Shown: piece after piece, positions 46,639-63,814 of the stretch | Position numbering within the stretch: position 1 is the stretch's first letter | Layout: each line of letters opens with the position of its first letter | Sequence record: MT446408.1 | DNA length: 64,000 bases | Direction: 5' to 3' (one strand) | From: Escherichia virus TH35 | The notes under the pieces: generated by a model | What the model was told of the DNA's origin: nothing | What the model saw: only the letters and a program-made list of their open reading frames with translations | Databases searched by the model: none | Made by a program: the position numbers and the translations under genes

Positions 46639-47049
46639 TTGTTAATCACCCTCATGAAAGGTAATGATATGTCAAATAAGAATGATTCTATTCACAATAC
46701 ATATACTAAAGGCAGCGGAATGGCCTTTGGTGGCAGTATCAAAATTGACGTTCCATCTTGCGATTCTGATGGATTGGAAGTCGGCAACCGCGACTTAACA
46801 TGGGTTTTACGTCGCCAATCTGATTTAGAAGAGAAGCTGGAAAATATTGAGCGTTCTCTCGAAAGTTTGCGCGATCAGCTTTTTGGTTGTTCTGAAGATG
46901 ATTCACAACCTGGACCATATGCAGCCAATCATGGTTTGATTGATAATATGCTTGCTATTACCGCTCGATCAATTGGTAAAACTGTGTCCATTGAATCATT
47001 GATCAGCCAGATTGCGGATGGCTTTGGTGATGCCCATAAGAGCGAATAG
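46639..47049 (+). CDS. Hypothetical protein (136 aa)
   Basis: ORF track; true start may be internal ATG near 46669. Confidence 0.55.
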   Translation: MLITLMKGNDMSNKNDSIHNTYTKGSGMAFGGSIKIDVPSCDSDGLEVGNRDLTWVLRRQSDLEEKLENIERSLESLRDQLFGCSEDDSQPGPYAANHGLIDNMLAITARSIGKTVSIESLISQIADGFGDAHKSE

Positions 47050-47079
47050 TGGGTGGATGTTGCTTTAACCGTGAATCGT

Positions 47080-47105
47080 GGGTCGCTGTGGCGGCCCTTT
47101 ATTTT
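47080..47105 (+). terminator. Rho-independent terminator
   Basis: GGGTCGC-TGTG-GCGGCCC hairpin followed by TTTATTTT. Confidence 0.55.
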
Positions 47106-47109
47106 GCCT

Positions 47110-47745
47110 GCCGCGCAGGAGTGTACTGCAAATTTACTGTGGGCACAAAATAGTACGGTACTGTCTAGGACTTTTTCTTTGAAAAGTTAGTGGACCAAAT
47201 GTGTCGTATTTTGATTAGTGTACTGCAAATTTCATCAAGTACCAAAACGCACCAAAAGACCCATGCCCTAAAAACCACACGAACGCAATAATCAATCGCC
47301 GTTACAGTTTCCAGCGTTACAATTCGAAAGCGAATGATTCGATACACAATAATATGAAGCATAATGATTCGAAAGCGAATGATTGCGTGTAGTATAATAT
47401 CGGTGGGGATTATTCTAGATGCATGTAATTTCGCATGCGTACTATTTTCGGACGAAGGGTCGGCATATTCCTCGTTTTAGTTCGGAACGAAGGGAAAGTT
47501 TTGCGCCTTTATAAAACAACGACTTACGCAACCCGCCCTAACGGTCCGATATAGGTGTCTATATAAAACAAGGACTTACGCGATGTTCTCCATTTAACGT
47601 AATACCCGTTATGCGAACTAAGGAGCATCTCGAAGAAGATTATGAGGCGACGAAGGGAAGGATAAAGGAGTTTTCGCGGAGAAGCGCATCGAGATAGGGA
47701 CGAAGAAAAGCCGCGACTAAGCGCGGCCTATTAGTAACGGAAGGA
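47110..47745. repeat. Noncoding repeat-rich region (~640 bp) with several direct repeats
   Basis: TACTGCAAATTT x2, TTCGAAAGCGAATGATT x2, TATAAAACAA(C/G)GACTTACGC x2, ACGAAGGG x3-4 read directly; only one weak 65-aa ORF. Confidence 0.5.
47689..47712 (-). terminator. Rho-independent terminator for acidic paralog A
   Basis: On - strand GCCGCG-CTTAGT-CGCGGC hairpin followed by TTTTCTT. Confidence 0.45.
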
Positions 47746-47747
47746 TA

Positions 47748-48038
47748 TTATAAGGAGACAATTTTAAAATAAGTTACTTCGCCGCCGAGTTGCGGTACAG
47801 CGATATATTCGCCGCCGATTTCGGTAATCGTATAAACGAAGCCGTTAATCGTTACGCGATAGGATACGATGTCCTCGTCGCGATACTTGTAAAGGTCGAG
47901 GAAGTTGATCGGCTCATAAATAGACTCGATAATCGCGTCGACGTTAGAGAGATAAACGCTCTCTAAGGTTTCGCCAAATACGTTAGAGTTTTCGGAAGTT
48001 TCGACGCGAGCGGAACGGATAGCGGCTAAAGTAATCAT
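47748..48038 (-). CDS. Acidic small protein, paralog A (96 aa, net charge about -10)
   Basis: ORF track; RBS AGGAG; own promoter; similar to 48146-48448 and 48674-48958. Confidence 0.65.
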   Translation of the reverse strand: MITLAAIRSARVETSENSNVFGETLESVYLSNVDAIIESIYEPINFLDLYKYRDEDIVSYRVTINGFVYTITEIGGEYIAVPQLGGEVTYFKIVSL

Positions 48039-48105
48039 AATAATCTCCTAGTTGGTCGGGCGGGTAGCGACCTATTCGCTACCTCATCCCCTCTCGATAT
48101 AAAAC

Positions 48106-48134
48106 ATTATAGTATTAGTGTACGAAGAAGTAAA
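48106..48134 (-). promoter_or_regulatory. Sigma70-like promoter TTTACT-N17-TATAAT with upstream CGAAAAAGTGC element
   Basis: Read on - strand; near-identical to promoter at 48577-48604. Confidence 0.6.
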
Positions 48135-48145
48135 GCACTTTTTCG

Positions 48146-48448
48146 TTATTTTGCGATAAAATGTTTATAAGCTTTATCGCCTTCTACGTCGATATACTCG
48201 ACGATAATTAACGCTTCGTCGCGAGGCGTAACCGTCTCGATAAGGGTAACGGCTTCGTCGTCGGTCTTCGCGAAGCGGATGGCGCTACGTTCGGCGTATT
48301 TCATATCGTCGAAGGAAAGGCCGACGAAGGCGAACGCGCGGACCTTAATAGCGGTCCCGTCTAGTTCCGCGTTAACGGCTTTAAGAAGAGAAGCGACGGT
48401 TAAGCGGTCTTCGTCGTAAGTAAGGATAGAAGAGATTAAAGTGGTCAT
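48146..48448 (-). CDS. Acidic small protein, paralog B (100 aa)
   Basis: ORF track 48146-48505; start moved to ATG 48448 (RBS GGGAG) because the promoter -10 lies at 48505-48510. Confidence 0.6.
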   Translation of the reverse strand: MTTLISSILTYDEDRLTVASLLKAVNAELDGTAIKVRAFAFVGLSFDDMKYAERSAIRFAKTDDEAVTLIETVTPRDEALIIVEYIDVEGDKAYKHFIAK

Positions 48449-48504
48449 AATAAAACTCCCGATGCTAGTAGAAGGAAGGGCCATCGCCCGTCTCGATATA
48501 AACA

Positions 48505-48532
48505 AGTATACGCGAGTGTACGAAGAAGTAAA
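48505..48532 (-). promoter_or_regulatory. Sigma70-like promoter TTTACT-N16-TATACT
   Basis: Read on - strand upstream of paralog B. Confidence 0.5.
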
Positions 48533-48576
48533 GAAAAAAGATAAAATAATTTATCTCATTTTTATCGAAAAAGTGC

Positions 48577-48604
48577 TTTACTTTTTTCTACACTATATTA
48601 TAAT
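48577..48604 (+). promoter_or_regulatory. Sigma70-like promoter TTTACT-N16/17-TATAAT with upstream CGAAAAAGTGC element
   Basis: Read on + strand upstream of paralog C; about 60-nt leader to ATG. Confidence 0.6.
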
Positions 48605-48673
48605 GTACTCATATCGGGACGGGATGAGTTAACGAATAGGTCGTTAACGCCCGTCGAGAACTAGGAGTTTAAA

Positions 48674-48958
48674 ATGGCTATTCTTAACGTTTCTTCCATC
48701 CGTAACGCTATCGTCGAGAACTACGGCGTAAAACAAATTTTATCCGAAGTCTACGCCGCGAACGTAGACCAAACTATCGAGGCAGGTGGGGTAACGGTCG
48801 CCGAGGCTTTTAAACTTTACGCGGCGCTACCGGAATCGGACCGCGAAGCCTTCGAAGTAAACGTTAACGGATACTTCTTCGAAGCGGTCGAAATCGGTAA
48901 CACCTTACTCGTTATGGGCGAAGAAGAATTTGAGACCTTCTCCCTCGTCGAAGCGTAA
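48674..48958 (+). CDS. Acidic small protein, paralog C (94 aa, net charge about -12)
   Basis: ORF track; RBS AGGAG; own promoter and terminator. Confidence 0.65.
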   Translation: MAILNVSSIRNAIVENYGVKQILSEVYAANVDQTIEAGGVTVAEAFKLYAALPESDREAFEVNVNGYFFEAVEIGNTLLVMGEEEFETFSLVEA

Positions 48959-48972
48959 GAGAGGATTTTTAG

Positions 48973-48998
48973 AGCGTCGTGCGCGACGCTTTAATAAA
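48973..48998 (+). terminator. Terminator hairpin after paralog C
   Basis: AGCGTCGTGCGCGACGCT palindrome followed by TTTAATAAAATTCTTT. Confidence 0.5.
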
Positions 48999-49038
48999 AT
49001 TCTTTCGCGCCTAGCGCCCTAACAAATAGGAGTTTATT

Positions 49039-49665
49039 ATGGTTAGCTTAAATCGTTTCTCGACTAGCGGCGACGTTATCGCAACTAAGACCGCCGACCT
49101 CGTTGCATTTTATAATGCAAATTCCGGTTCGAAGCCGATTAAGAAATTTTCGGACCGCCGGACCGCCGAGGCTCGCGTAATAGCGTTAATCGAGTCCTTA
49201 AACGCGCTCGATGAGCCGTCCAACGAATCGCCCATCCCAGACGCGAAGTCGCGCGAGGAAGTGCCCAGCGATGTAAAAACGCATAAGGCGCGTGCGGTCG
49301 TTAAAAAGTCCGAGCCGACCCAGGAAGAACTCGACGCGATGACCGACGAAGAGTATGAAGCCTTCGTTAAGAGCGGTTTAAACGATAGTGCAAATTGCGT
49401 AGTGCAAAATGGAACTCCTTCCCATCGCCGTTCAAATAGCGAAGGTATTGCGAAAAGTTGGGATAACAAGGAAGTGGCGCAAAAGCGTCTCACGCGTAAC
49501 GGCGTTATGGTCGAGGGTGTAGGCGAGTTCAAATCGGTCCGCGTAGCGTTTGCTGCGCTGGGCTTACCGGATAGCAAGCACATTCGCTTCCGCATGAAGC
49601 TTAAAGAAGCTGGACGATTGAACTTTGAGTTCGGCAACAAGTCCTACACCTTCCAGATCATCTAA
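49039..49665 (+). CDS. Hypothetical protein (208 aa), mosaic composition
   Basis: ORF track; RBS AGGAG; 5' half CpG-rich like the acidic cassette; contains two ATAGTGCAAAT-type motifs at 49385-49410. Confidence 0.6.
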   Translation: MVSLNRFSTSGDVIATKTADLVAFYNANSGSKPIKKFSDRRTAEARVIALIESLNALDEPSNESPIPDAKSREEVPSDVKTHKARAVVKKSEPTQEELDAMTDEEYEAFVKSGLNDSANCVVQNGTPSHRRSNSEGIAKSWDNKEVAQKRLTRNGVMVEGVGEFKSVRVAFAALGLPDSKHIRFRMKLKEAGRLNFEFGNKSYTFQII

Positions 49666-49671
49666 TCGAAT

Positions 49672-49694
49672 GGCGGCCCTTCGGGGTCGCTTTT
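49672..49694 (+). terminator. Rho-independent terminator
   Basis: GCGGCCC-TTCG-GGGTCGC hairpin (one G-U pair) followed by TTTT; followed immediately by ATAGTGCAAAT. Confidence 0.5.
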
Positions 49695-49715
49695 CATAGT
49701 GCAAATTGGTGGCTT

Positions 49716-49979
49716 ATGAATACGCTTATTCTTATCGCTACGTTGTCCATCGGAAGTGGTCGCACCTTATCCCTTTATGATCATAGTGCAAATTGCGCTT
49801 ACCCAACGCGCGTTGCGGTGATAGTTAATAGTGCAAATCGAATGCTATTCGAGACTTGTTGGCGGGTCGATAACGAGAAAGGTCGGGTAGTCTTAGGTTA
49901 TAGTGCAAATCTGCTGGTGGAGTCGTTCGATTGGACGGTTGAAGGCCGTAAATTGTTACGGAAAGTGACTAAAAGATGA
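49716..49979 (+). CDS. Doubtful ORF (87 aa) carrying three ATAGTGCAAAT motif copies
   Basis: ORF track; GGTGG as possible RBS; coding status uncertain. Confidence 0.3.
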   Translation: MNTLILIATLSIGSGRTLSLYDHSANCAYPTRVAVIVNSANRMLFETCWRVDNEKGRVVLGYSANLLVESFDWTVEGRKLLRKVTKR

Positions 49980-50040
49980 CTTATAATAATACACTTTCTA
50001 ACGCGTTTATGGTTGTAACCTTCCCCGTCGTATTACCGAT

Positions 50041-50080
50041 GGCCCTAGAAGTGGAGAAAATGTGTTCTAGGGCCGTTTTA
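50041..50080 (+). terminator. Rho-independent terminator
   Basis: Perfect 10-bp stem GGCCCTAGAA/TTCTAGGGCC followed by GTTTTA, then ATAGTGCAAAT. Confidence 0.55.
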
Positions 50081-50093
50081 TAGTGCAAATTGG

Positions 50094-50582
50094 CTAGTGG
50101 CGGGAGAATTGCTCACCTTCTTTGGCCGCCTCTCCAAAATCCTTGTAGAAATCGTCCATAGAACGGCCCATTTTACTATTGCCGTTTTCATCAATCATCG
50201 TGATGCCGTAGATGATATTCAGTTCACGAATAGCATTAAGCTTGGCTGATGCCGCGACTTCTGGATCACGCACAAGCTTGACCAAATTGTGAATTGCACC
50301 TTTTACGCTCCACAAATCCTTTAGCGGCATTTCTTCCATACGCTTTTTGAAGCGCATTTTGTAGTACGGATTGCGTTGTGCGCAAAGGATTCGCTGGCCA
50401 GTGTAGTTATCCGTTGCAACTTCCATTCCAAATACTAGTGCAAAAGCTGCGCGCATGTCATGGCCCTGAATAACAAGGTCAATGAACTCATCGAATAAGG
50501 CCTGATTGTGCTCTGCAAATCGCGGGTCTTCAAAGTCTTCAGGCATCGCTACATAGTCTTGACTCATAGTGCAAAATCCCAT
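50094..50582 (-). CDS. Hypothetical protein (162 aa); motif copies overlap both gene ends
   Basis: ORF track; start codon overlaps an ATAGTGCAAAAT copy; no clear RBS; function not assigned. Confidence 0.55.
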   Translation of the reverse strand: MGFCTMSQDYVAMPEDFEDPRFAEHNQALFDEFIDLVIQGHDMRAAFALVFGMEVATDNYTGQRILCAQRNPYYKMRFKKRMEEMPLKDLWSVKGAIHNLVKLVRDPEVAASAKLNAIRELNIIYGITMIDENGNSKMGRSMDDFYKDFGEAAKEGEQFSRH

Positions 50583-50714
50583 AGTGCAAATTAATAGTGT
50601 GAATTATACAATGGATGAACATTATATTCAAGTGCAGATTGATGTTCATTATGGCTATAAACGTACACAAATCATATTGCGGAATGAATAGCGGACCGTG
50701 GTGCGTGGTGTACT

Positions 50715-51130
50715 GTTTGATACGTATAAAAGAAATCCATCCCTTTCGCCGCTTGTTATGCAAATCAATGACTTAGCCGCTGCTGGCTGGTTTAAGCGTA
50801 TCATGACGTATCATCCGTATTGCCGCAAGTCTTTGTTTTTACTTATATCTTACGGATAATACGTATAAATATAAGTTTAGTATAAGTATGAGGATATGAA
50901 AAAAATTAATTTAAATGTTTTTAAAATGGAGTTTATTTATTTTTGGAGTTTTATATATAACGATGCCCAGTTTTATCCGTATCATCCGTAAGATTAATGT
51001 ACAAGCCAGGCGCGGCAAGGGCTGTACACTGATACGGATAAAAAAACATGACGTATCATGACGTAAGGGTGTACCACTTTGGAAAAGAGGAATCCAGGAA
51101 CGGTGCGGCCTGCAGCCATGATACGCTTAA
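50715..51130. repeat. Second iteron-like array (GATACGGAT and GTATCATGACGTA repeats) flanking a ~90-bp AT-rich core
   Basis: Read directly; shares 21-mer ATCCGTATCATCCGTAAGATT with 34774-34794. Confidence 0.6.
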
Positions 51131-51397
51131 ATTTTAGCCGTATTTTAGGCGTATCAAATGTGTGCAAACAACACGTTTCACGACACTAAAATTTCAATCC
51201 ATAGATAATTCCTAACAAACACCACGGACCAATAGACACGATCTATGAAATATATTTCTAAATATTTCCGCACAATTAATAAATAAAACACAACCTCATA
51301 ATTATTCCATCGCAAAACACGACCCAAACGACAAAAGGCCGCATAAAGCGACCCATTGCACACATTCCATTCTTCAAAACACACAAATCAATGTTCT

Positions 51398-51934
51398 TTA
51401 TCCGCTGACCTTCCAGTCACCATTCCTTTTATCACGCTTCTTTAACTCCGTTTTAATGACATTATTATCCACAATAACTCCTAAACGGCGCAATTCACAC
51501 ATGACCTTGTGGCGATATTGTCGAAGCTTTTTGACGTCCATTGTGCTCCTTGAATAAGATAGTACCATAAAAATAATATCATCATTCATTTTGTAACGCA
51601 TACAAGTTTTATAATGCCTTTTGAAAATTGCATTTACGGCATCTGTTTTCAGCAATTCATCCATTAATTCTGGATTCCCTTCACAGACGTTAATGACCCA
51701 TTCATCCCTTGATTTTGCCGCTTTCAATCCCCTTAGAGTTAATAACTCATATAATGCCTTTCTGCACTTAGAGCAATCACCAATTGTCAAACTTGATTCC
51801 ATTTCTTGAGCATCGGTCAACTCTGTATTGCCTTTGTTGAATTTACCGCACAAGCTGATTTGCTCGCCGTTGTCAAAGTAGTGGGCAAGTTTTGAGTATC
51901 GCGGCTTGCCCCATCCTGCAACGTTACCCATCAC
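51398..51934 (-). CDS. Hypothetical early protein (178 aa)
   Basis: ORF track. Confidence 0.55.
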   Translation of the reverse strand: MMGNVAGWGKPRYSKLAHYFDNGEQISLCGKFNKGNTELTDAQEMESSLTIGDCSKCRKALYELLTLRGLKAAKSRDEWVINVCEGNPELMDELLKTDAVNAIFKRHYKTCMRYKMNDDIIFMVLSYSRSTMDVKKLRQYRHKVMCELRRLGVIVDNNVIKTELKKRDKRNGDWKVSG

Positions 51935-59103: not shown

Positions 59104-59751
59104 TTATCCTGTGGCCTGCATATTGCGTACATACTTCTGCTCTAATGAATAGATGAAGTCGGCGACAGTCAATCCCTTCGTGTGCCATTCATACATGGTG
59201 AAGCCTGTATTCAGGAAATAGCCGCGCACCTTGTCCATCGCTTCAGCTTCCTCCAGTGAAGCCATCAGCGCGGCGACGTTGTCATAAGAAGGTACAAATC
59301 CCTTCTTGCGTAGCGCATTGCGCAAATCTTTAGTTCTGAAGCCAATCTTGCAAGGGTCATCGCGGCCCGTGGATGATGCAACCTTTGGAAGAGCAAGGAA
59401 CTCTTTGAGGAACATTGCAATGTTCAAGTCGCCTGCATCATCAAGCTTCTGGATTCGGTTGCGACCGCGACCCTTGAATTCACTCGCACGAGGGTGAGCG
59501 CCAAAACAGTGCGCCCCTTCCAGTTTAGGGTCAATGATCATCACATCTTTCCCAATGCGCAGCTCTACGTAGTAAAGATAAGACTCATCGACAAGCTTTG
59601 TGCGCTTGCAAGTGATTGAGTCCTTATCATAACCAAAGCCGCGCAACACGGTTGAGATCATTCGGTTCATTTCTTCGCCGTGAACGTCACTTTCTTTGTT
59701 CAGTTCACCAAGATGTTGAAAGAATTTAGCGATGTTGATTGCTTTATTCAT
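59104..59751 (-). CDS. Hypothetical protein (215 aa)
   Basis: ORF track. Confidence 0.6.
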   Translation of the reverse strand: MNKAINIAKFFQHLGELNKESDVHGEEMNRMISTVLRGFGYDKDSITCKRTKLVDESYLYYVELRIGKDVMIIDPKLEGAHCFGAHPRASEFKGRGRNRIQKLDDAGDLNIAMFLKEFLALPKVASSTGRDDPCKIGFRTKDLRNALRKKGFVPSYDNVAALMASLEEAEAMDKVRGYFLNTGFTMYEWHTKGLTVADFIYSLEQKYVRNMQATG

Positions 59752-61421
59752 CAGAATTCATCCTTATCTCTTCCCAAAGAACGTTTACGCTCAATAACCT
59801 TCTTCAAGAATTCAATATCTTCAGGGTCAGACTCATCGCGGATAAGATACGCTAAGATGGTCATCAAATCAGAAATGTATTCTCCTGCTTCATTCTTAAT
59901 CAGCGGCGTAAAGTACCCGCGCTGGTTGCGATAGGTTGCAGGCTCAAAACCAAGCTTCGACATGTGCGGCGCAAGGGTACGTGAGAAAGGCGACTTGCCG
60001 CACTTAGCTCTGAAGCCCATAGCGATTGCACCACTAGTGATGTGCCAGCGTCCGCTGTGATGTCGGTCATAAGGCGCGGTAATGATGACTTCAACAAGGT
60101 CGTTGTCGACCATCTCATCACGGATAACGCCGCGAGCGCGTTCCATTTCGTTCTTACTGAACTCAGTAAGCATACGAGATGTTTCACCAACAAAGGCATT
60201 GTAACCTGCTTCACCGTGCTTCTCCATCCACGCAGCGCACTCAGCCATCAGTTGCCAAACGTCTTCTTTCAAAGTGGAAAGGTCAGCTTGGAAGTCTTTA
60301 GACCAGTTCGGTTGCCCGTCCTTGTCAGCAAGTTGTCCAACAAAGATAGGGTACACACGACGGTTGCCCGTGTCGTCACGCTGCATACCTGCGTATTCGT
60401 TGCCGTCCATGATAGCAATCCACTGGCGTGGTTTAACCTGCGTGTCTTCAAATTTGAAGTCCAGGTCATCTTCCGTCTTAGTCAGGAATGCTTTCATGTT
60501 TTCGATGTCAGCCTTTTTAAAGCCTGTCATCTCGCCAACGTTCGCGATAATTGAGCGACCCGTAATAGCTCGCAAGAACGGGTTGAAGTTCTGCGCGGCC
60601 AAGTTCAACGGAATCGGTGTTGCGTGGCGGTCGTTCATAATAGCTTCGCAAAGTAGCTTACTAAAATAACTCTTCCCTGCGTTCTGGCCGCCGATGAGCG
60701 CAATGGAGATTGGCGCTTGACAGCCAGGGTTGGTCAGGCGGTTATAGAGCGATAGCCAAAAATACACACCGATTTGTCGGTTTAACTCTGTATCGAACGG
60801 TCGGAATAGCTCGATAAGGTATTTCTCAATGCGCGCAGTACCGTCCCATTCAGGCAGCTTCTTGTAGAAGAAGTCCATCAGGTCATCGCGCTGATAACGC
60901 ATGGCCCATTCCTTATAGGATTGAGCGACCTGACGTGAGTTTGGGTTGGACAGGCCTGCTGCGTCGACAGCGGCAACTATCTCTGTGACTTCCAACGTCC
61001 GGTCGGTGAATGTTTCTCCGCGATGGTCGACTAAGCGTCCACGAAAAGTATCTTTGTGAGGGAATGGGACAATGCCGCTTCCCTTATCAAACAACGCGTC
61101 GAAAACCGCATAACGGTTCATGTCACTCGTCCGGTCCGCCTGAAGAACAAAATCATCTTTCGTCGGTTTGTAGTGAGGGAACTTGATTACCTGAAGTGAG
61201 GCGAGCAAACGTGCTCTTTCAACCAAGTCTTCTTCACCGTAGCATTCCATGCGCTCTGCATCTTTCTCAACAGCCTTATGCTGGAGGCTGATTTTAGCTC
61301 TGGCGCCTTGCTGCTCTGCCGCTTGCATTTCTTCTGAAACACCAGCGTCTTGAATTTCGTCAAAGATTGCACCAAATTCATCACCTGTATCCTCTGGAAG
61401 ATTGTCATGTTCAATTGACAT
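59751..61421 (-). CDS. P-loop NTPase of the primase-associated D5/VirE-like helicase type
   Basis: ORF track 556 aa; Walker A IALIGGQNAGKS; directly downstream of primase gene cluster. Confidence 0.55.
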   Translation of the reverse strand: MSIEHDNLPEDTGDEFGAIFDEIQDAGVSEEMQAAEQQGARAKISLQHKAVEKDAERMECYGEEDLVERARLLASLQVIKFPHYKPTKDDFVLQADRTSDMNRYAVFDALFDKGSGIVPFPHKDTFRGRLVDHRGETFTDRTLEVTEIVAAVDAAGLSNPNSRQVAQSYKEWAMRYQRDDLMDFFYKKLPEWDGTARIEKYLIELFRPFDTELNRQIGVYFWLSLYNRLTNPGCQAPISIALIGGQNAGKSYFSKLLCEAIMNDRHATPIPLNLAAQNFNPFLRAITGRSIIANVGEMTGFKKADIENMKAFLTKTEDDLDFKFEDTQVKPRQWIAIMDGNEYAGMQRDDTGNRRVYPIFVGQLADKDGQPNWSKDFQADLSTLKEDVWQLMAECAAWMEKHGEAGYNAFVGETSRMLTEFSKNEMERARGVIRDEMVDNDLVEVIITAPYDRHHSGRWHITSGAIAMGFRAKCGKSPFSRTLAPHMSKLGFEPATYRNQRGYFTPLIKNEAGEYISDLMTILAYLIRDESDPEDIEFLKKVIERKRSLGRDKDEF

Positions 61422-61557: not shown

Positions 61558-61848
61558 TCAACAAGGAAATTGGTCAGCGTATGCCTTTCTCAATTTGTTT
61601 ACTGACTGAACAGAATGAAGGTATTGGCAATCGGTGAAGATGCGGCGCAAACAATCCATAGAAGACAGGTCATCGTTAGTAACCACCAGAATCTCTTCAG
61701 AAGGGCAACCAGCTTCTTTGGCAATCTCATTAAGATTTGAGCCATTAATTTCTTCAACACGTTTCACCTCATCGATACCGTAAACATCAACGGCAACTTC
61801 GATGTCGTCATCGCTGATATTCTCACCATAAAGAATTACAATATTCAT
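61558..61848 (-). CDS. Hypothetical acidic protein (96 aa)
   Basis: ORF track. Confidence 0.5.
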   Translation of the reverse strand: MNIVILYGENISDDDIEVAVDVYGIDEVKRVEEINGSNLNEIAKEAGCPSEEILVVTNDDLSSMDCLRRIFTDCQYLHSVQSVNKLRKAYADQFPC

Positions 61849-62731: not shown

Positions 62732-63814
62732 CTATTTTATGCCACCTGCGCGACGATTTATCATATCAAGTTGATTCTCAATATAAGGCATGACTACTGC
62801 TTCAACAAAAGCGGTCCAGCCTTTCTTGCCTTCCCCTTTCCGGTGACAGTCGTGAGCACAACCGAAAACGAATTCATGTTCAGCACCAGGGATGGGGCCG
62901 CGAAAATAAGCGCCGTATGGGTCGCCGTTGGTGTGCTCTTCACCCCAAGGGCAAATGATTCGGCATTTACCTGACATGTTTTCAACCACATCGCCATCAG
63001 ACCCTTCGCCCATCTTATTGCGCGCAAGGATTTGCTGGGCTATCTTATACCAAACAGCATCATATTTGTATTCGTCAACGTCGATTTGAATTTCACGCTT
63101 TTGCGGCATAACGACGTGGAAACCGAAGGCTTGGCAAATCTCTTCGATTGTGTAGCGCAAAGAATAGTCTGCATGGACAAGTCGGCAGCGGAACGGGTCG
63201 CCGTTCTCATCGACATATTTATAGGGGCCGTCGTGAGTCACGCGCTTGTTGTTGATGCACCCAGGAACACGGCCCACGCGCGTCACGTCTTTAATCGTAT
63301 TGTCGCCGCCCTTCTTGAGTACCATGTTTACGAAAGACCCAAGGAATGCTTTGAACTGAATAAGATGGTCAATTGGCTCTTTAAAGAAATACCACAGCTG
63401 GTGGTTGTTCGGCGAAGTCTCAACGATGACGGTTGGCTTCAGACGCTCGAAAAAGAACTCCAAATCTAAATCGCCTTTAGACCCTTTACCGTGACCGATG
63501 TCGTCGACCATCATCGCCATGCCATGACCAAAGGCCGATTCCGTGCGCCAGTATCGCATCTCGCCTGTCTTTGGGTTGGGAGACTTACGCATTGAACTTA
63601 TGCAGGCGTAACCGTTCTGATGTTGCATCAGCGGCTTGCCAAGCTTCCAAGGCTTAGGCCAGAAGCTGCTGTTAATCTTTTTGCCGCGCTCGTCGGTCTG
63701 CACCGTTGCTTCAGGCGCAAACACGGTCATGACGCGTTCATCTTCTGGAATGCCTCTTTGGAGTTCCGTCAAAAACTCTTCGATTATTTTTGCTTCTTCT
63801 CTTAAACTAGCCAT
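62732..63814 (-). CDS. Archaeo-eukaryotic-type primase (primase-polymerase-like) with C-terminal zinc-binding region
   Basis: ORF track 360 aa; AEP-like motifs MMVDDIGHG, ETSPNNHQLW, RVGRVPGCINNK; Cys/His cluster CPWGEEH ... FGCAHDCH. Confidence 0.65.
   Translation of the reverse strand: MASLREEAKIIEEFLTELQRGIPEDERVMTVFAPEATVQTDERGKKINSSFWPKPWKLGKPLMQHQNGYACISSMRKSPNPKTGEMRYWRTESAFGHGMAMMVDDIGHGKGSKGDLDLEFFFERLKPTVIVETSPNNHQLWYFFKEPIDHLIQFKAFLGSFVNMVLKKGGDNTIKDVTRVGRVPGCINNKRVTHDGPYKYVDENGDPFRCRLVHADYSLRYTIEEICQAFGFHVVMPQKREIQIDVDEYKYDAVWYKIAQQILARNKMGEGSDGDVVENMSGKCRIICPWGEEHTNGDPYGAYFRGPIPGAEHEFVFGCAHDCHRKGEGKKGWTAFVEAVVMPYIENQLDMINRRAGGIK

Follow-up and report, generated by a model that had tools for sequence, protein, structure and literature searches.

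A one-strand array of short repeats astride the small terminase gene, a candidate genome-end signal in the terminal repeat of a Wifcevirus

We found that the window (the whole 64-kb stretch of DNA analysed), which belongs to a Wifcevirus, an E. coli myovirus of about 68 kb, carries 12 copies of an 11-nt motif on a single strand, all within the direct terminal repeat (DTR) and astride the small terminase gene, terS; the array is conserved across genera. It is most likely a signal for the handling of genome ends, in packaging or in end recombination, and not a promoter. As its reader we tentatively favour the terminase, for which the array would be a redundant, cis-acting, direction-dependent signal of the terS-side end of the DTR.

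The array is confined to one strand of the terminal repeat

49112..50604, plus strand: motif array, 12 copies of 11 nt each, starting at 49112 (ATAATGCAAAT), 49385, 49399 (GTAGTGCAAAA), 49696, 49783, 49828, 49900, 50080, 50435 (CTAGTGCAAAA), 50566 (ATAGTGCAAAA), 50581 and 50594 (ATAGTGTGAAT); starts without a sequence are exact ATAGTGCAAAT
47255..50927, no strand: DTR, 3673 bp, present in single copy in the window
50927/50928: A end, on the terS side
47254/47255: B boundary

The enrichment, which an earlier note had proposed checking on both strands against shuffled sequence, is real: the window holds seven exact copies of ATAGTGCAAAT, all on the plus strand, where shuffles predict 0.05 and none of 100 reached seven. 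TAGTGCAAA occurs ten times, always on the plus strand between 49386 and 50582, and nowhere else in the window on either strand. Scanning both strands of the whole window with a matrix built from the copies, at a cut-off of at least 12 bits, returned the 12 plus-strand sites listed above, with none outside the array and none on the minus strand. The earlier note had described about 13 copies in 3.5 kb, in one orientation and essentially absent elsewhere; the orientation and confinement stand, but there are 12 copies in 1.5 kb, and 13 is reached solely with two-mismatch matches, which are at chance level over the window (24 found, 26 expected).

The ends were placed by mapping related records. 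The WFC record has an exact 3784-bp repeat at both ends, its position 1 corresponding to window position 50927, and would set the B boundary at 47173/47174, 81 bp to the left of the placement used here; that placement comes from the near-identical phage Mansfield, whose 3673-bp DTR was annotated from PhageTerm, and it falls in the same alignment column as the boundary of the 3603-bp DTR of Pantoea phage Kyle. The A end falls at the identical window position in six related records (WFC, Mansfield, SP13, WFH, Ro157lw and ECP_WGS_SA1). The array lies 323–1815 bp from this end, inside the DTR and astride terS, a location that favours a terminase reader.

Spacing between the copies is irregular and without helical phasing: over 68 distances taken from five phages, the Rayleigh test gave p > 0.13 for all periods between 9.5 and 12 bp. 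The sites lack palindromy, conservation does not extend beyond about 13 bp around the motif, most copies lie within coding sequence, sense or antisense, and an AT-rich region adjoins the array.

Three copies fill the promoter-to-start interval of terS

50094..50567, minus strand: terS, small terminase gene, 157 aa, by profile match and Mansfield annotation; alternative ATG at 50582
50603..50631, minus strand: sigma70-like terS promoter, TTGAAT-17-TATAAT, 10 of 12 consensus positions in a promoter scan
50566..50604, plus strand: tandem triplet, three copies spaced 15 and 13 bp, between the terS -10 hexamer and start codon

We identify the gene as terS because a profile of its protein and six homologues matches PDB 7UXE, 'Small terminase' (E = 1.6e-45), which we take to be the small terminase of phage E217. 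The Mansfield annotation likewise calls it terminase small subunit, and the E217 homologue is 41% identical. That protein, the closest solved TerS structure, is a decamer by cryo-EM and showed no appreciable DNA binding in vitro (PMC9611059), which counts against the terminase. The terminal repeat, the identity of terS and its minus-strand context were absent from the earlier note, which had correctly seen two copies on the start codon of this gene: copies 50566 and 50581 overlap its two candidate ATGs. The -10 hexamer shares 2 nt with the first copy of the triplet. The relative L004 has the same order of end, promoter, TATAAT, three copies and terS ATG, in keeping with a terminase reader.

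Related elements stand beside the other boundary

47118..47136, plus strand: boundary element copy 1, GAGTGTACTGCAAATTTAC, resembling the array motif TAGTG.CAAAT with TACTG inserted
47208..47254, plus strand: conserved block just outside the B boundary, from the window/Kyle alignment
47215–47232, plus strand: boundary element copy 2, TTAGTGTACTGCAAATTT, inside that block
50707..50714, plus strand: third copy of the octamer GTGTACTG, 213–220 bp inside the A end

The sites at 47123 and 47220 belong to a separate 15–16-nt composite element, (A)GTGTACTGCAAATTT, beside the B boundary. The block is largely conserved between the window and Kyle, and its 14-nt core AGTACACTAATCA (terS orientation) is identical in the two, with TerS just 43% identical. 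The 64 kb hold just three copies of the octamer GTGTACTG, each on the plus strand (47121, 47218 and 50707), and in Kyle it lies 204 bp inside the A end. The composite TAGTG-TACTG-CAAAT stands 23–45 nt outside the B boundary, at an equal distance in Kyle, which supports the terminase; together with the array, it means that motif-like elements precede both cut sites on the plus strand. Against the terminase, the B-boundary block and an AT-rich A junction with TGATACG inverted repeats are conserved, lie nearer the cuts than the array and could set the cuts without it.

The array is conserved in distant relatives

A search of related phages, also proposed in the earlier note, found 12–16 copies of the core RTAGTRCRRAT (RATYYGYACTAY in terS orientation) in L004, L005, L006 and Kyle, whose TerS proteins are 43–68% identical to that of the window; all point one way and fall from -120 to +1180 relative to the terS ATG, agreeing with the window in orientation and place, with exact positions partly different. 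The 73 kb of Kyle have nine T[CT]GCACTA sites in each repeat copy and none outside the repeat, as would suit a terminase signal. L004 has a counterpart for seven of the 12 window copies, six in register and the seventh (49696) shifted by 2 nt; across six aligned copies, identity is 89% in the motif columns, 54% in the flanks and 62% for the alignment overall, again in favour of the terminase.

Three observations weigh the other way: within the genus, motif columns vary less than flanking ones but not significantly so (4 of 99 versus 25 of 280; p = 0.13), copies turn over between lineages, and there is no motif in several holders of a homologous TerS, namely Pbunavirus E217, Serratia phage Hera, Xanthomonas phage XcP1 and the IMG/VR loci L140–142.

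The terminase is the proposed reader of the array

We infer the terminase as reader, presumably a TerS decamer with an SPP1-like large subunit, and likewise the direction of packaging; the 12 redundant one-strand copies would mark the terS-side repeat end for the packaging machine. They could constitute the recognition region beside the initiation cut, in the layout cut, binding sites, terS, modelled on lambda cosB and the P1 and SPP1 pac sites, or they could act as a fail-safe, encountered one after another by the translocating motor ahead of the precise cut at 50927/50928. At the triplet over the terS promoter and start codon, the reader would also repress terS.

The lambda cosB R-sites, the P1 pac hexamer repeats in pacA and SPP1 pacL/pacR are terminase recognition regions beside terS, and the array is like them in placing short repeats beside or inside the small terminase gene, near the cut, in the common order cut, sites, terS; as in SPP1, sites overlap the terS promoter. 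Recognition regions known from pac and cos systems are, however, compact (120–270 bp in these three phages) and fixed, whereas the array is spread irregularly over 1.5 kb, turns over between lineages and is largely coding; its spread, spacing and coding copies all count against the terminase. In T7, short imperfect repeat arrays, SRL and SRR, flank the 160-bp terminal repeat and, like the array, are tied to the boundaries of direct terminal repeats, an analogy in which the T7 role would be at most packaging-related; in T7, 7-mers stand in tandem just beyond a terminal repeat that is very short, whereas ours are dispersed 11-mers inside a 3.7-kb one. Terminase recognition regions beside terS are also treated in a review (PMC9611059).

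Chi clusters share the place and orientation of the array

49913..49920, plus strand: the only exact Chi (GCTGGTGG) of the repeat, 2 nt after copy 49900
50093–50100, plus strand: Chi-like GCTAGTGG, after copy 50080

The main rival, which we consider rather unlikely, is a Chi-like signal read on one strand by a helicase-nuclease entering the terS-proximal end. This enzyme could be phage-encoded, or a phage factor could retarget host RecBCD, and recognition would switch degradation to recombination or protection, promoting repeat-to-repeat recombination and concatemers. Directly after three of the window copies comes a Chi or Chi-like octamer. True Chi clusters, co-oriented, stand exactly at the place of the array in Kyle (nine in the first 2 kb) and the Logan contig L005 (six in 1.8 kb), and their orientation is the active one for RecBCD entry at the terS-side end; in Hera, which is without the motif, the four Chi sites of the genome all cluster in 1.1 kb around terS. 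The phages thus grade from Chi only (Hera) through both signals (Kyle, L005) to almost motif only (window, L004).

The array is also designed like translocase-read signals, with a strict single orientation, irregular spacing and dense local packing, copies accepted whatever the coding context, and positions that turn over as the count is kept; the Mansfield annotation has neither a recombinase nor a RecBCD inhibitor. E. coli RecBCD, however, is specific for GCTGGTGG, and the motif differs from it in sequence (the array holds one exact Chi) and in core length (11–12 versus 8 nt), with no known enzyme to read it. The two signals of Kyle and L005 would be redundant, and the tandem triplet and other-boundary element are left unexplained. 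Terminal Chi clusters are an established strategy in phage P1 and lambdoid phages such as LLS (Zheng et al. 2025, PMC12315714); these, like the clusters in our relatives and like the array, comprise many short one-strand copies near a genome end or terminal repeat, oriented toward the end.

Of the three options the earlier note had offered, packaging or recombination fits best: the array is in the DTR, around terS, at least 323 bp from the mapped end, and is kept in distant relatives, where it shares place and orientation with Chi clusters.

Regulatory, replicative and injection signals fit less well

Another of those options, a set of operators bound by a DNA-binding phage protein, possibly TerS, that would shut off the terS promoter and modulate the convergent terS, ORF87 and ORF208, is plausible at the triplet only and improbable for the array. 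The triplet fills the -10-to-ATG interval in the window and L004, and L004 has four further copies upstream of the -35 hexamer; but nine of the 12 copies stand well away from promoters, no copy lies near the other four sigma70-like promoters found by scanning the repeat, Kyle has none upstream of terS, and the sites lack palindromy. No regulator gene tracks the motif, and a phylogenetic profile gave no candidate. A 'transcriptional regulator' of ECML-117 was considered and rejected, being a 231-bp insertion missing from the window.

More doubtful still is a replication signal, either origin iterons or strand-specific sites for a phage RepB'-type primase on a rolling-circle displaced strand. 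The phage encodes a VapE-like helicase and a RepB'-like primase, RepB' primases being enzymes that initiate at defined sites on single strands, and the array offers direct repeats in one orientation, several abutting hairpins, beside AT-rich DNA. The spacing is nevertheless neither regular nor phased, most copies have no hairpin, and the primase is 56–72% identical in Pbunavirus, Serratia and Xanthomonas relatives, of which E217, Hera and XcP1 are without the motif. As a DnaA box the motif is poor, matching at best 7 of 9 positions of TTWTNCACA, and the positions it conserves (G before CAC, TA after) differ from those of a DnaA box.

We think it very unlikely that the array is an injection-stop or anchoring region like T5 iss, at which a repeat-rich block would pause DNA entry during early-gene expression. 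The geometry recalls Repeat Region 3 of T5, which is conserved, rich in repeats, about 1.2 kb long and putative in function, and which lies at the inner end of a long left repeat with early genes (Davison, bioRxiv 10.1101/866236), and our promoter scan found strong sigma70-like promoters with small early-type genes in the DTR. The T5 block, however, is untranslated and full of inverted repeats, palindromes and paired consensus DnaA boxes, whereas the array is direct, one-directional, without DnaA boxes and embedded in genes including terS; no two-step transfer is known for Wifcevirus.

Least probable of all, and not supported, is promoter use by a phage-specific RNA polymerase, by a sigma factor or by a factor that redirects RNA polymerase, an idea the earlier note had put first: two copies directly follow terminators, 49696 sits 9 nt before the ribosome-binding site and ATG of ORF87, and the related Pbunavirus 14-1 has non-sigma70 promoters (PMC10914365), but the second 14-1 motif, CTGGG, is unrelated, the Mansfield annotation has neither polymerase nor sigma factor, the other 62 kb have no copy, so that no middle or late operon is served, copies lie mostly inside genes, where many would drive antisense RNA, and nothing is conserved beyond about 13 bp or arranged in sigma70-type -35/-10 geometry.

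Two small genes carry copies of the motif

49039..49665, plus strand: ORF208, adjoining terS, kept in all relatives examined
49668..49695, plus strand: terminator hairpin with U-run, -18 kcal/mol, z = -3.3, directly before copy 49696
49716..49979, plus strand: ORF87, a small gene conserved as protein in five relatives
50038..50079, plus strand: terminator hairpin with U-run, -20.5 kcal/mol, z = -4.1, directly before copy 50080

Two of three copies said to follow terminator hairpins do so, 49696 and 50080, and the WFC annotation has a terminator at the first site; the third, a variant at 47124, is the separate boundary element. In ORF208, copies 49385 and 49399 lie in a hypervariable linker and 49112 in the conserved N-terminal domain; an alignment shows all three missing at the homologous positions of ECML-117 and L004. 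ORF87, previously called doubtful, does hold three copies (49783, 49828 and 49900, 45 and 72 bp apart), each read xAT-AGT-GCA-AAT (Ser-Ala-Asn), and is a real gene: its identity by tblastn is 56% in L004, 38% in L005, 34% in L006, 29% in Kyle and 33% in Hera, and the alignment has two invariant cysteines and an invariant WR.

A motif array of one orientation at the terS-proximal end of a direct terminal repeat

The region matched 28 phage records at 92-95% identity (Wifcevirus, E. coli/Shigella myovirus, ~68 kb), and several related records share a start point corresponding to window 50927. A repeat at both physical ends is seen in related records, the window itself holding one copy: the WFC record has an exact 3784-bp repeat at both ends, the Mansfield record a 3673-bp direct terminal repeat annotated from PhageTerm, and the genome of Pantoea phage Kyle a terminal repeat of 3603 bp; Korf et al. 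give ~3.7 kb (PMC6563267). The public records differ on the inner boundary, which maps to window 47173|47174 in WFC, 81 bp further left than the 47254|47255 of Mansfield; because the latter aligns exactly with the boundary of Kyle's repeat, we adopted it. The interval that the earlier note had singled out, 47124-50606, is thus in effect roughly the terminal repeat. We refer to its terS side, 50927|50928, as the A end, and to 47254|47255 as the B boundary, terS being the small-terminase gene.

47255-50927: direct terminal repeat (Mansfield PhageTerm boundary and Kyle alignment)
50631-50603: sigma70-like terS promoter, TTGAAT-17-TATAAT (promoter scan)

The A junction, AACTCC|ATTTTAAAAAC, is kept in relatives. 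Eight TGATACG/CGTATCA words at 50716-51158 (22 in the whole window) form nested inverted repeats centred roughly on 50927|50928, with similar ATACG-type repeats at the corresponding place in two Logan contigs of relatives, L004 and L006; these inverted repeats are a candidate recognition structure for the actual cleavage site.

The minus-strand gene at 50094-50567, whose start is 360 bp from the A end, is by its sequence the small terminase: a profile of its product and six homologs matches PDB 7UXE ('Small terminase', E = 1.6e-45), which we take to be the decameric TerS of Pbunavirus E217. As this match settled its identity, an AlphaFold model of TerS (pLDDT 73.6) was set aside. E217 encodes a homolog 41% identical to the window's TerS; the E217 protein is a decamer solved by cryo-EM, and shows no appreciable DNA binding in vitro (review, PMC9611059).

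Within the repeat, a short motif had been noted as forming a dense array, and its over-representation stands. The 11-nt element (core RTAGTRCRRAT; copies are named by start position) occurs as ATAGTGCAAAT in seven exact copies, all on the + strand at 49385-50591, against 0.05 expected from dinucleotide-preserving shuffles, none of which reached seven (0/100). At two or fewer mismatches the whole window yields 24 matches where 26 are expected; since such matches are at chance level, degenerate ones were counted only where clustered. The 9-mer TAGTGCAAA has ten copies, all on the + strand within 49386-50582 and none elsewhere on either strand of the 64-kb window, and with a weight matrix (~14 bits) derived from the copies, 12 sites score at least 12 bits, again all on the + strand, at 49112-50604. 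The array therefore spans 1.5 kb rather than the 3.5 kb originally claimed, and the matches at 47123 and 47220 both belong to a different element, (A)GTGTACTGCAAATTT.

The 12 copies extend from -37 to +1455 relative to the terS ATG, or 323-1815 bp from the A end at 50927, with irregular spacings of 13-355 bp and no helical phasing. They fall on the terS 5' leader and coding sequence, post-terminator spacers and two plus-strand genes, ORF87 (49716-49979) and ORF208 (49039-49665), so that coding sequence holds seven or eight of them, depending on the terS ATG chosen. As first described, strong hairpins with U-runs stand immediately before copies 49696 and 50080, three copies lie inside ORF87 and two overlap start codons of terS; ORF87 itself, then called doubtful, proved to be a real gene. 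Copies 49112, 49385 and 49399 are in ORF208, the latter two in its hypervariable linker, and three tandem copies fill the interval between the -10 hexamer and the terS ATG. An Rfam scan of 46900-51400 returned no match.

Copy number and orientation are kept in relatives while positions turn over

Through TerS homologs we reached three Logan contigs (L004, L005 and L006, with TerS 68%, 51% and 47% identical to that of the window), Kyle (43%), Pseudomonas phage E217 (41%), Serratia phage Hera (36%) and Xanthomonas phage XcP1 (32%). The motif, RATYYGYACTAY in terS orientation, has 12 copies in L004 and 12 in L005, as in the window, about 14 in L006 (variant ATCCGYACTAY) and about 16 in Kyle (YYCGCACTAC). 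All copies share one orientation and fall at -120 to +1180 relative to the terS ATG, some 250-1550 bp away from the A end. Across the complete genome of Kyle, T[CT]GCACTA is confined to the repeat, with nine occurrences in each copy. The motif was not found near the TerS homologs of E217, Hera, XcP1 or three IMG/VR loci (L140-142). The latter were the only additions from an IMG/VR scan by terS, and contain neither motif nor Chi. A second IMG/VR scan, for TAGTGCAAA-N(1-30)-TAGTGCA, gave 120 loci that we rejected as array relatives, all being chance matches or coding repeats (for example, Ser-Ala-Asn repeats within fibre-like genes); 0/120 had a terS relative.

Of the 12 copies in the window, seven have a counterpart at the corresponding place in L004, one of them displaced by 2 nt. 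Across six copies aligned with L004, motif columns are 89% identical against 54% for the flanks and 62% overall, the contrast of 89% with 54% being biased upward because aligned copies were chosen for being conserved; across six close genomes, motif columns are less variable than flanks as a trend only (p = 0.07-0.13). Copies 49112, 49385 and 49399 are missing at homologous positions in ECML-117 and L004, and are thus lineage-specific; the number of copies and their orientation therefore persist even as individual positions change.

A related element occurs near both boundaries of the repeat. Three copies of GTGTACTG occur in the 64 kb, all on the + strand: 47121 and 47218, just outside the B boundary, and 50707, 213-220 bp inside the A end. 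The full form of the copy nearest the B boundary, TTAGTGTACTGCAAATTT, reads as the array motif with a TACTG insert, and in Kyle the boundary element lies 23-45 nt outside the B boundary and 204 bp inside the A end. Read along the + strand, each of the two cuts therefore comes after motif-type elements, with other conserved elements nearer to both. A conserved block of ~45 nt lies directly outside 47254|47255.

Chi sites share the place and orientation of the motif

Unbiased k-mer counts around terS in the relatives returned a second enriched word, CCACCAGC, the complement of the RecBCD recombination hotspot Chi (5'-GCTGGTGG-3'). In Kyle (L007/L012, 255-1979), the first 2 kb of the repeat holds nine Chi sites and the genome as a whole 22 in the orientation of the terminal cluster (both repeat copies counted), versus two in the opposite one; L005 has six in 1.8 kb (323-1824), and in Hera (L009, 4737-5833) all four Chi sites of the 67.5-kb genome fall within 1.1 kb around terS. 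Sites of the terminal clusters (Kyle, L005, L006, Hera) all point one way, the same as the motif, and this orientation suits recognition by RecBCD entering the terS-proximal end. The motif strand likewise has its 3' end at the A end, and an enzyme entering there would meet the motif from its 3' side. The repeat of the window holds one exact Chi, at 49913, 2 nt past a motif copy, and one GCTAGTGG at 50093.

Chi clusters at genome ends have precedents in P1 and in those lambdoid phages that carry no recombination genes of their own (PMC12315714); the Mansfield annotation lists no recombinase and no RecBCD inhibitor. The clusters seen here are of the E. coli type, in a single orientation, at the terS-proximal end of virulent myoviruses related to Pbunavirus; for such phages we found no literature description of terminal Chi clusters, those described being in P1 and lambdoid phages. 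Because the clusters occupy a matching place and orientation in these relatives, recombination at the ends is a question directly testable in an E. coli phage; for vB_Eco4M-7, a method to assemble the genome in vitro has been published (PMC11074155).

Possible readers of the array

The interpretation left is a signal that depends on direction and belongs to the end of the repeat. As its most likely reader we tentatively propose the terminase, because of the linkage to terS, the canonical order of cut, sites and terS, and the related element at the other boundary. The earlier note had offered a packaging or recombination site, and the array does lie beside and within terS and near the cut at the A end, as pac/cosB-type terminase sites do. 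Such sites, however, are compact, with fixed number, spacing and phasing, whereas this array is spread unphased over 1.5 kb and includes three lineage-specific copies; they also co-occur with their TerS family, whereas several of the TerS homologs lack the motif nearby. The indirect evidence on binding, from E217 TerS in vitro, is negative. A dispersed, redundant, turnover-prone design and the co-location with Chi fit a translocating scanner better than a fixed nucleoprotein site. Such a scanner could be the packaging motor on its way to the terminal cut, or else a helicase-nuclease that comes in through the end; we infer both the packaging direction and the end that enters first. We class the array among the cis-acting end and packaging signals of tailed phages, with a modest chance that it is something more unusual.

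The helicase-nuclease alternative, in which the motif would be read much as Chi is by an enzyme entering the end, fits the dispersal, redundancy and positional turnover of the array and its common place and orientation with the Chi clusters of relatives, but the motif sequence is unrelated to Chi and the window repeat has a single exact Chi; we consider it unlikely. A narrower version, that the motif is a phage-lineage-specific counterpart of Chi, an oriented single-strand cue at which a helicase-nuclease at the terS-proximal end stops degrading and starts recombination, is more doubtful still. RecBCD with its specificity altered by a phage factor, or else an enzyme of the phage that has escaped recognition, could play this part, and the series from Hera (Chi only) through Kyle and L005 (both) to Wifcevirus (motif almost only) would record one signal replacing the other; if true, the phage could label its DNA as 'self' without depending on host Chi.

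An operator array, also suggested at the outset, fits the triplet at the terS promoter but leaves the other copies unaccounted for. The idea of promoters for a phage RNA polymerase or sigma factor fails on placement: there are no copies outside 49112-50604 and none before other operons, most are intragenic or antisense, and transcripts starting from copy 50080 or from the three at 50566-50604 would be antisense to terS and to minus-strand genes past the A end. The Mansfield annotation, in which more than half of the genes are hypothetical, lists no phage RNA polymerase or sigma factor, our promoter scan placed no sigma70-like -35/-10 pair (16-18 bp spacing) on motif copies, and the second promoter motif of Pbunavirus 14-1, CTGGG (PMC10914365), is unrelated to the array motif.

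The array resembles the T5 iss region only in its position within the repeat, iss being an untranslated block, at the inner end of the terminal repeat, of inverted repeats, palindromes and paired DnaA boxes, whereas here the copies are direct and within genes. Replication readings are not supported: the copies are direct repeats but too irregular and unphased for iterons; genera in which the members examined (E217, Hera, XcP1) have no motif also keep the RepB'-type primase; and the DnaA box TTWTNCACA is matched at 7/9 in the best register, ATTTGCACT, and at 5-6/9 by the Kyle and L006 variants, the invariant motif positions (G-CAC-TA) differing on inspection from those of the box. Nor did the consensuses of the DnaA box, IHF and other E. 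coli factors give a convincing match. A phylogenetic profile of window ORFs present in Kyle and absent from E217 and Hera brought up no candidate for DNA binding, but did bring up many spurious ORFs in alternative frames.

Neither the terminal repeat nor terS is new, both being known or annotated already. In those parts of the literature on Wifcevirus, the BASEL collection and Pbunavirus transcriptomes that we searched, there is no mention of the motif array, nor of its strand bias, its Wifcevirus-Kylevirus conservation, the composite boundary relative or the co-location with Chi. To our knowledge, little is understood of the way in which phages whose terminal repeats are long and exact recognise and cut their ends, survive host exonucleases and restore concatemers; for the small terminase of the E217 group, whose structure is solved, we know of no DNA target. 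The array provides a concrete, conserved candidate sequence to test against E217-type TerS.

Neighbouring genes and composition of the repeat

ORF87 encodes a conserved small protein with a signal-peptide-like N terminus, two invariant Cys and an invariant Trp-Arg; three Ser-Ala-Asn tripeptides in it are the motif in frame. It adjoins terS in every motif-bearing phage and is placed elsewhere in Hera. ORF208, comprising two conserved domains around a hypervariable acidic linker, sits beside terS, encoded on the other strand, in Wifcevirus, Kyle, E217, XcP1 and the Logan contigs; in Hera it is ~1.8 kb off. It has no Pfam match and no PDB sequence relative, a homolog search found only 97-100% identical proteins, and an AlphaFold model from its sequence alone was of no use (pLDDT 39). 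Its product could be a so far unrecognised protein working with the machinery for packaging or end processing. Pfam and PHROGs gave no functional match for nine ORFs in and around the repeat. Two minus-strand stretches of terS are motif-like DNA in all five motif-bearing phages, the invariant Asn-Pro-Tyr-Tyr codons at 50361-50373 (AATCCGTACTACA) and the C-terminal His-stop at 50094-50106 (GCACTAA); the likeness comes either from conservation of the protein or from a constraint that the motif puts on the codons.

The central repeat, 47400-49700, has a CpG observed/expected ratio of 1.99, against 1.07-1.15 in the rest of the 64 kb, and TpA that is not depleted (1.16 versus about 0.65-0.70); its small early-type genes have a composition unlike other parts of the genome. 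Further features are:

47369-47398, + strand: sigma70-like promoter within a 45-bp tandem duplication (47313-47400), with ~340 nt free of ORFs downstream
48065-48148 and 48563-48646: near-identical promoter and 5'-leader cassettes, inverted repeats of 33-36 nt, 86-88% complementary
62732-63814, 61558-61848 and 59751-61421, - strand: replication module, RepB'-type primase in two pieces and VapE-like helicase

The ORF-free stretch, to 47740, contains GGA-rich repeats (ACGAAGGGA x4) and two 23-nt repeats; a structured RNA at 47405-47740 has no support, the fold being no better than that of shuffled sequence (z = +0.12), and Rfam finds nothing. A 231-bp insertion in ECML-117 and FEC19, at window 47753|47758, encodes a 69-aa protein annotated as 'transcriptional regulator', with no Pfam match; absent from the window, the ECML-117 protein was discarded as a motif binder. 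The small genes driven by the two cassettes run in opposite directions, 48505-48533 is a third copy, and all three have TTTACT-16/17-TATAAT/TATACT hexamers. Among Pbunavirus, Kylevirus, Serratia and Xanthomonas phages, identity of the 360-aa primase is 56-72%, and terS is far less conserved (32-43%).
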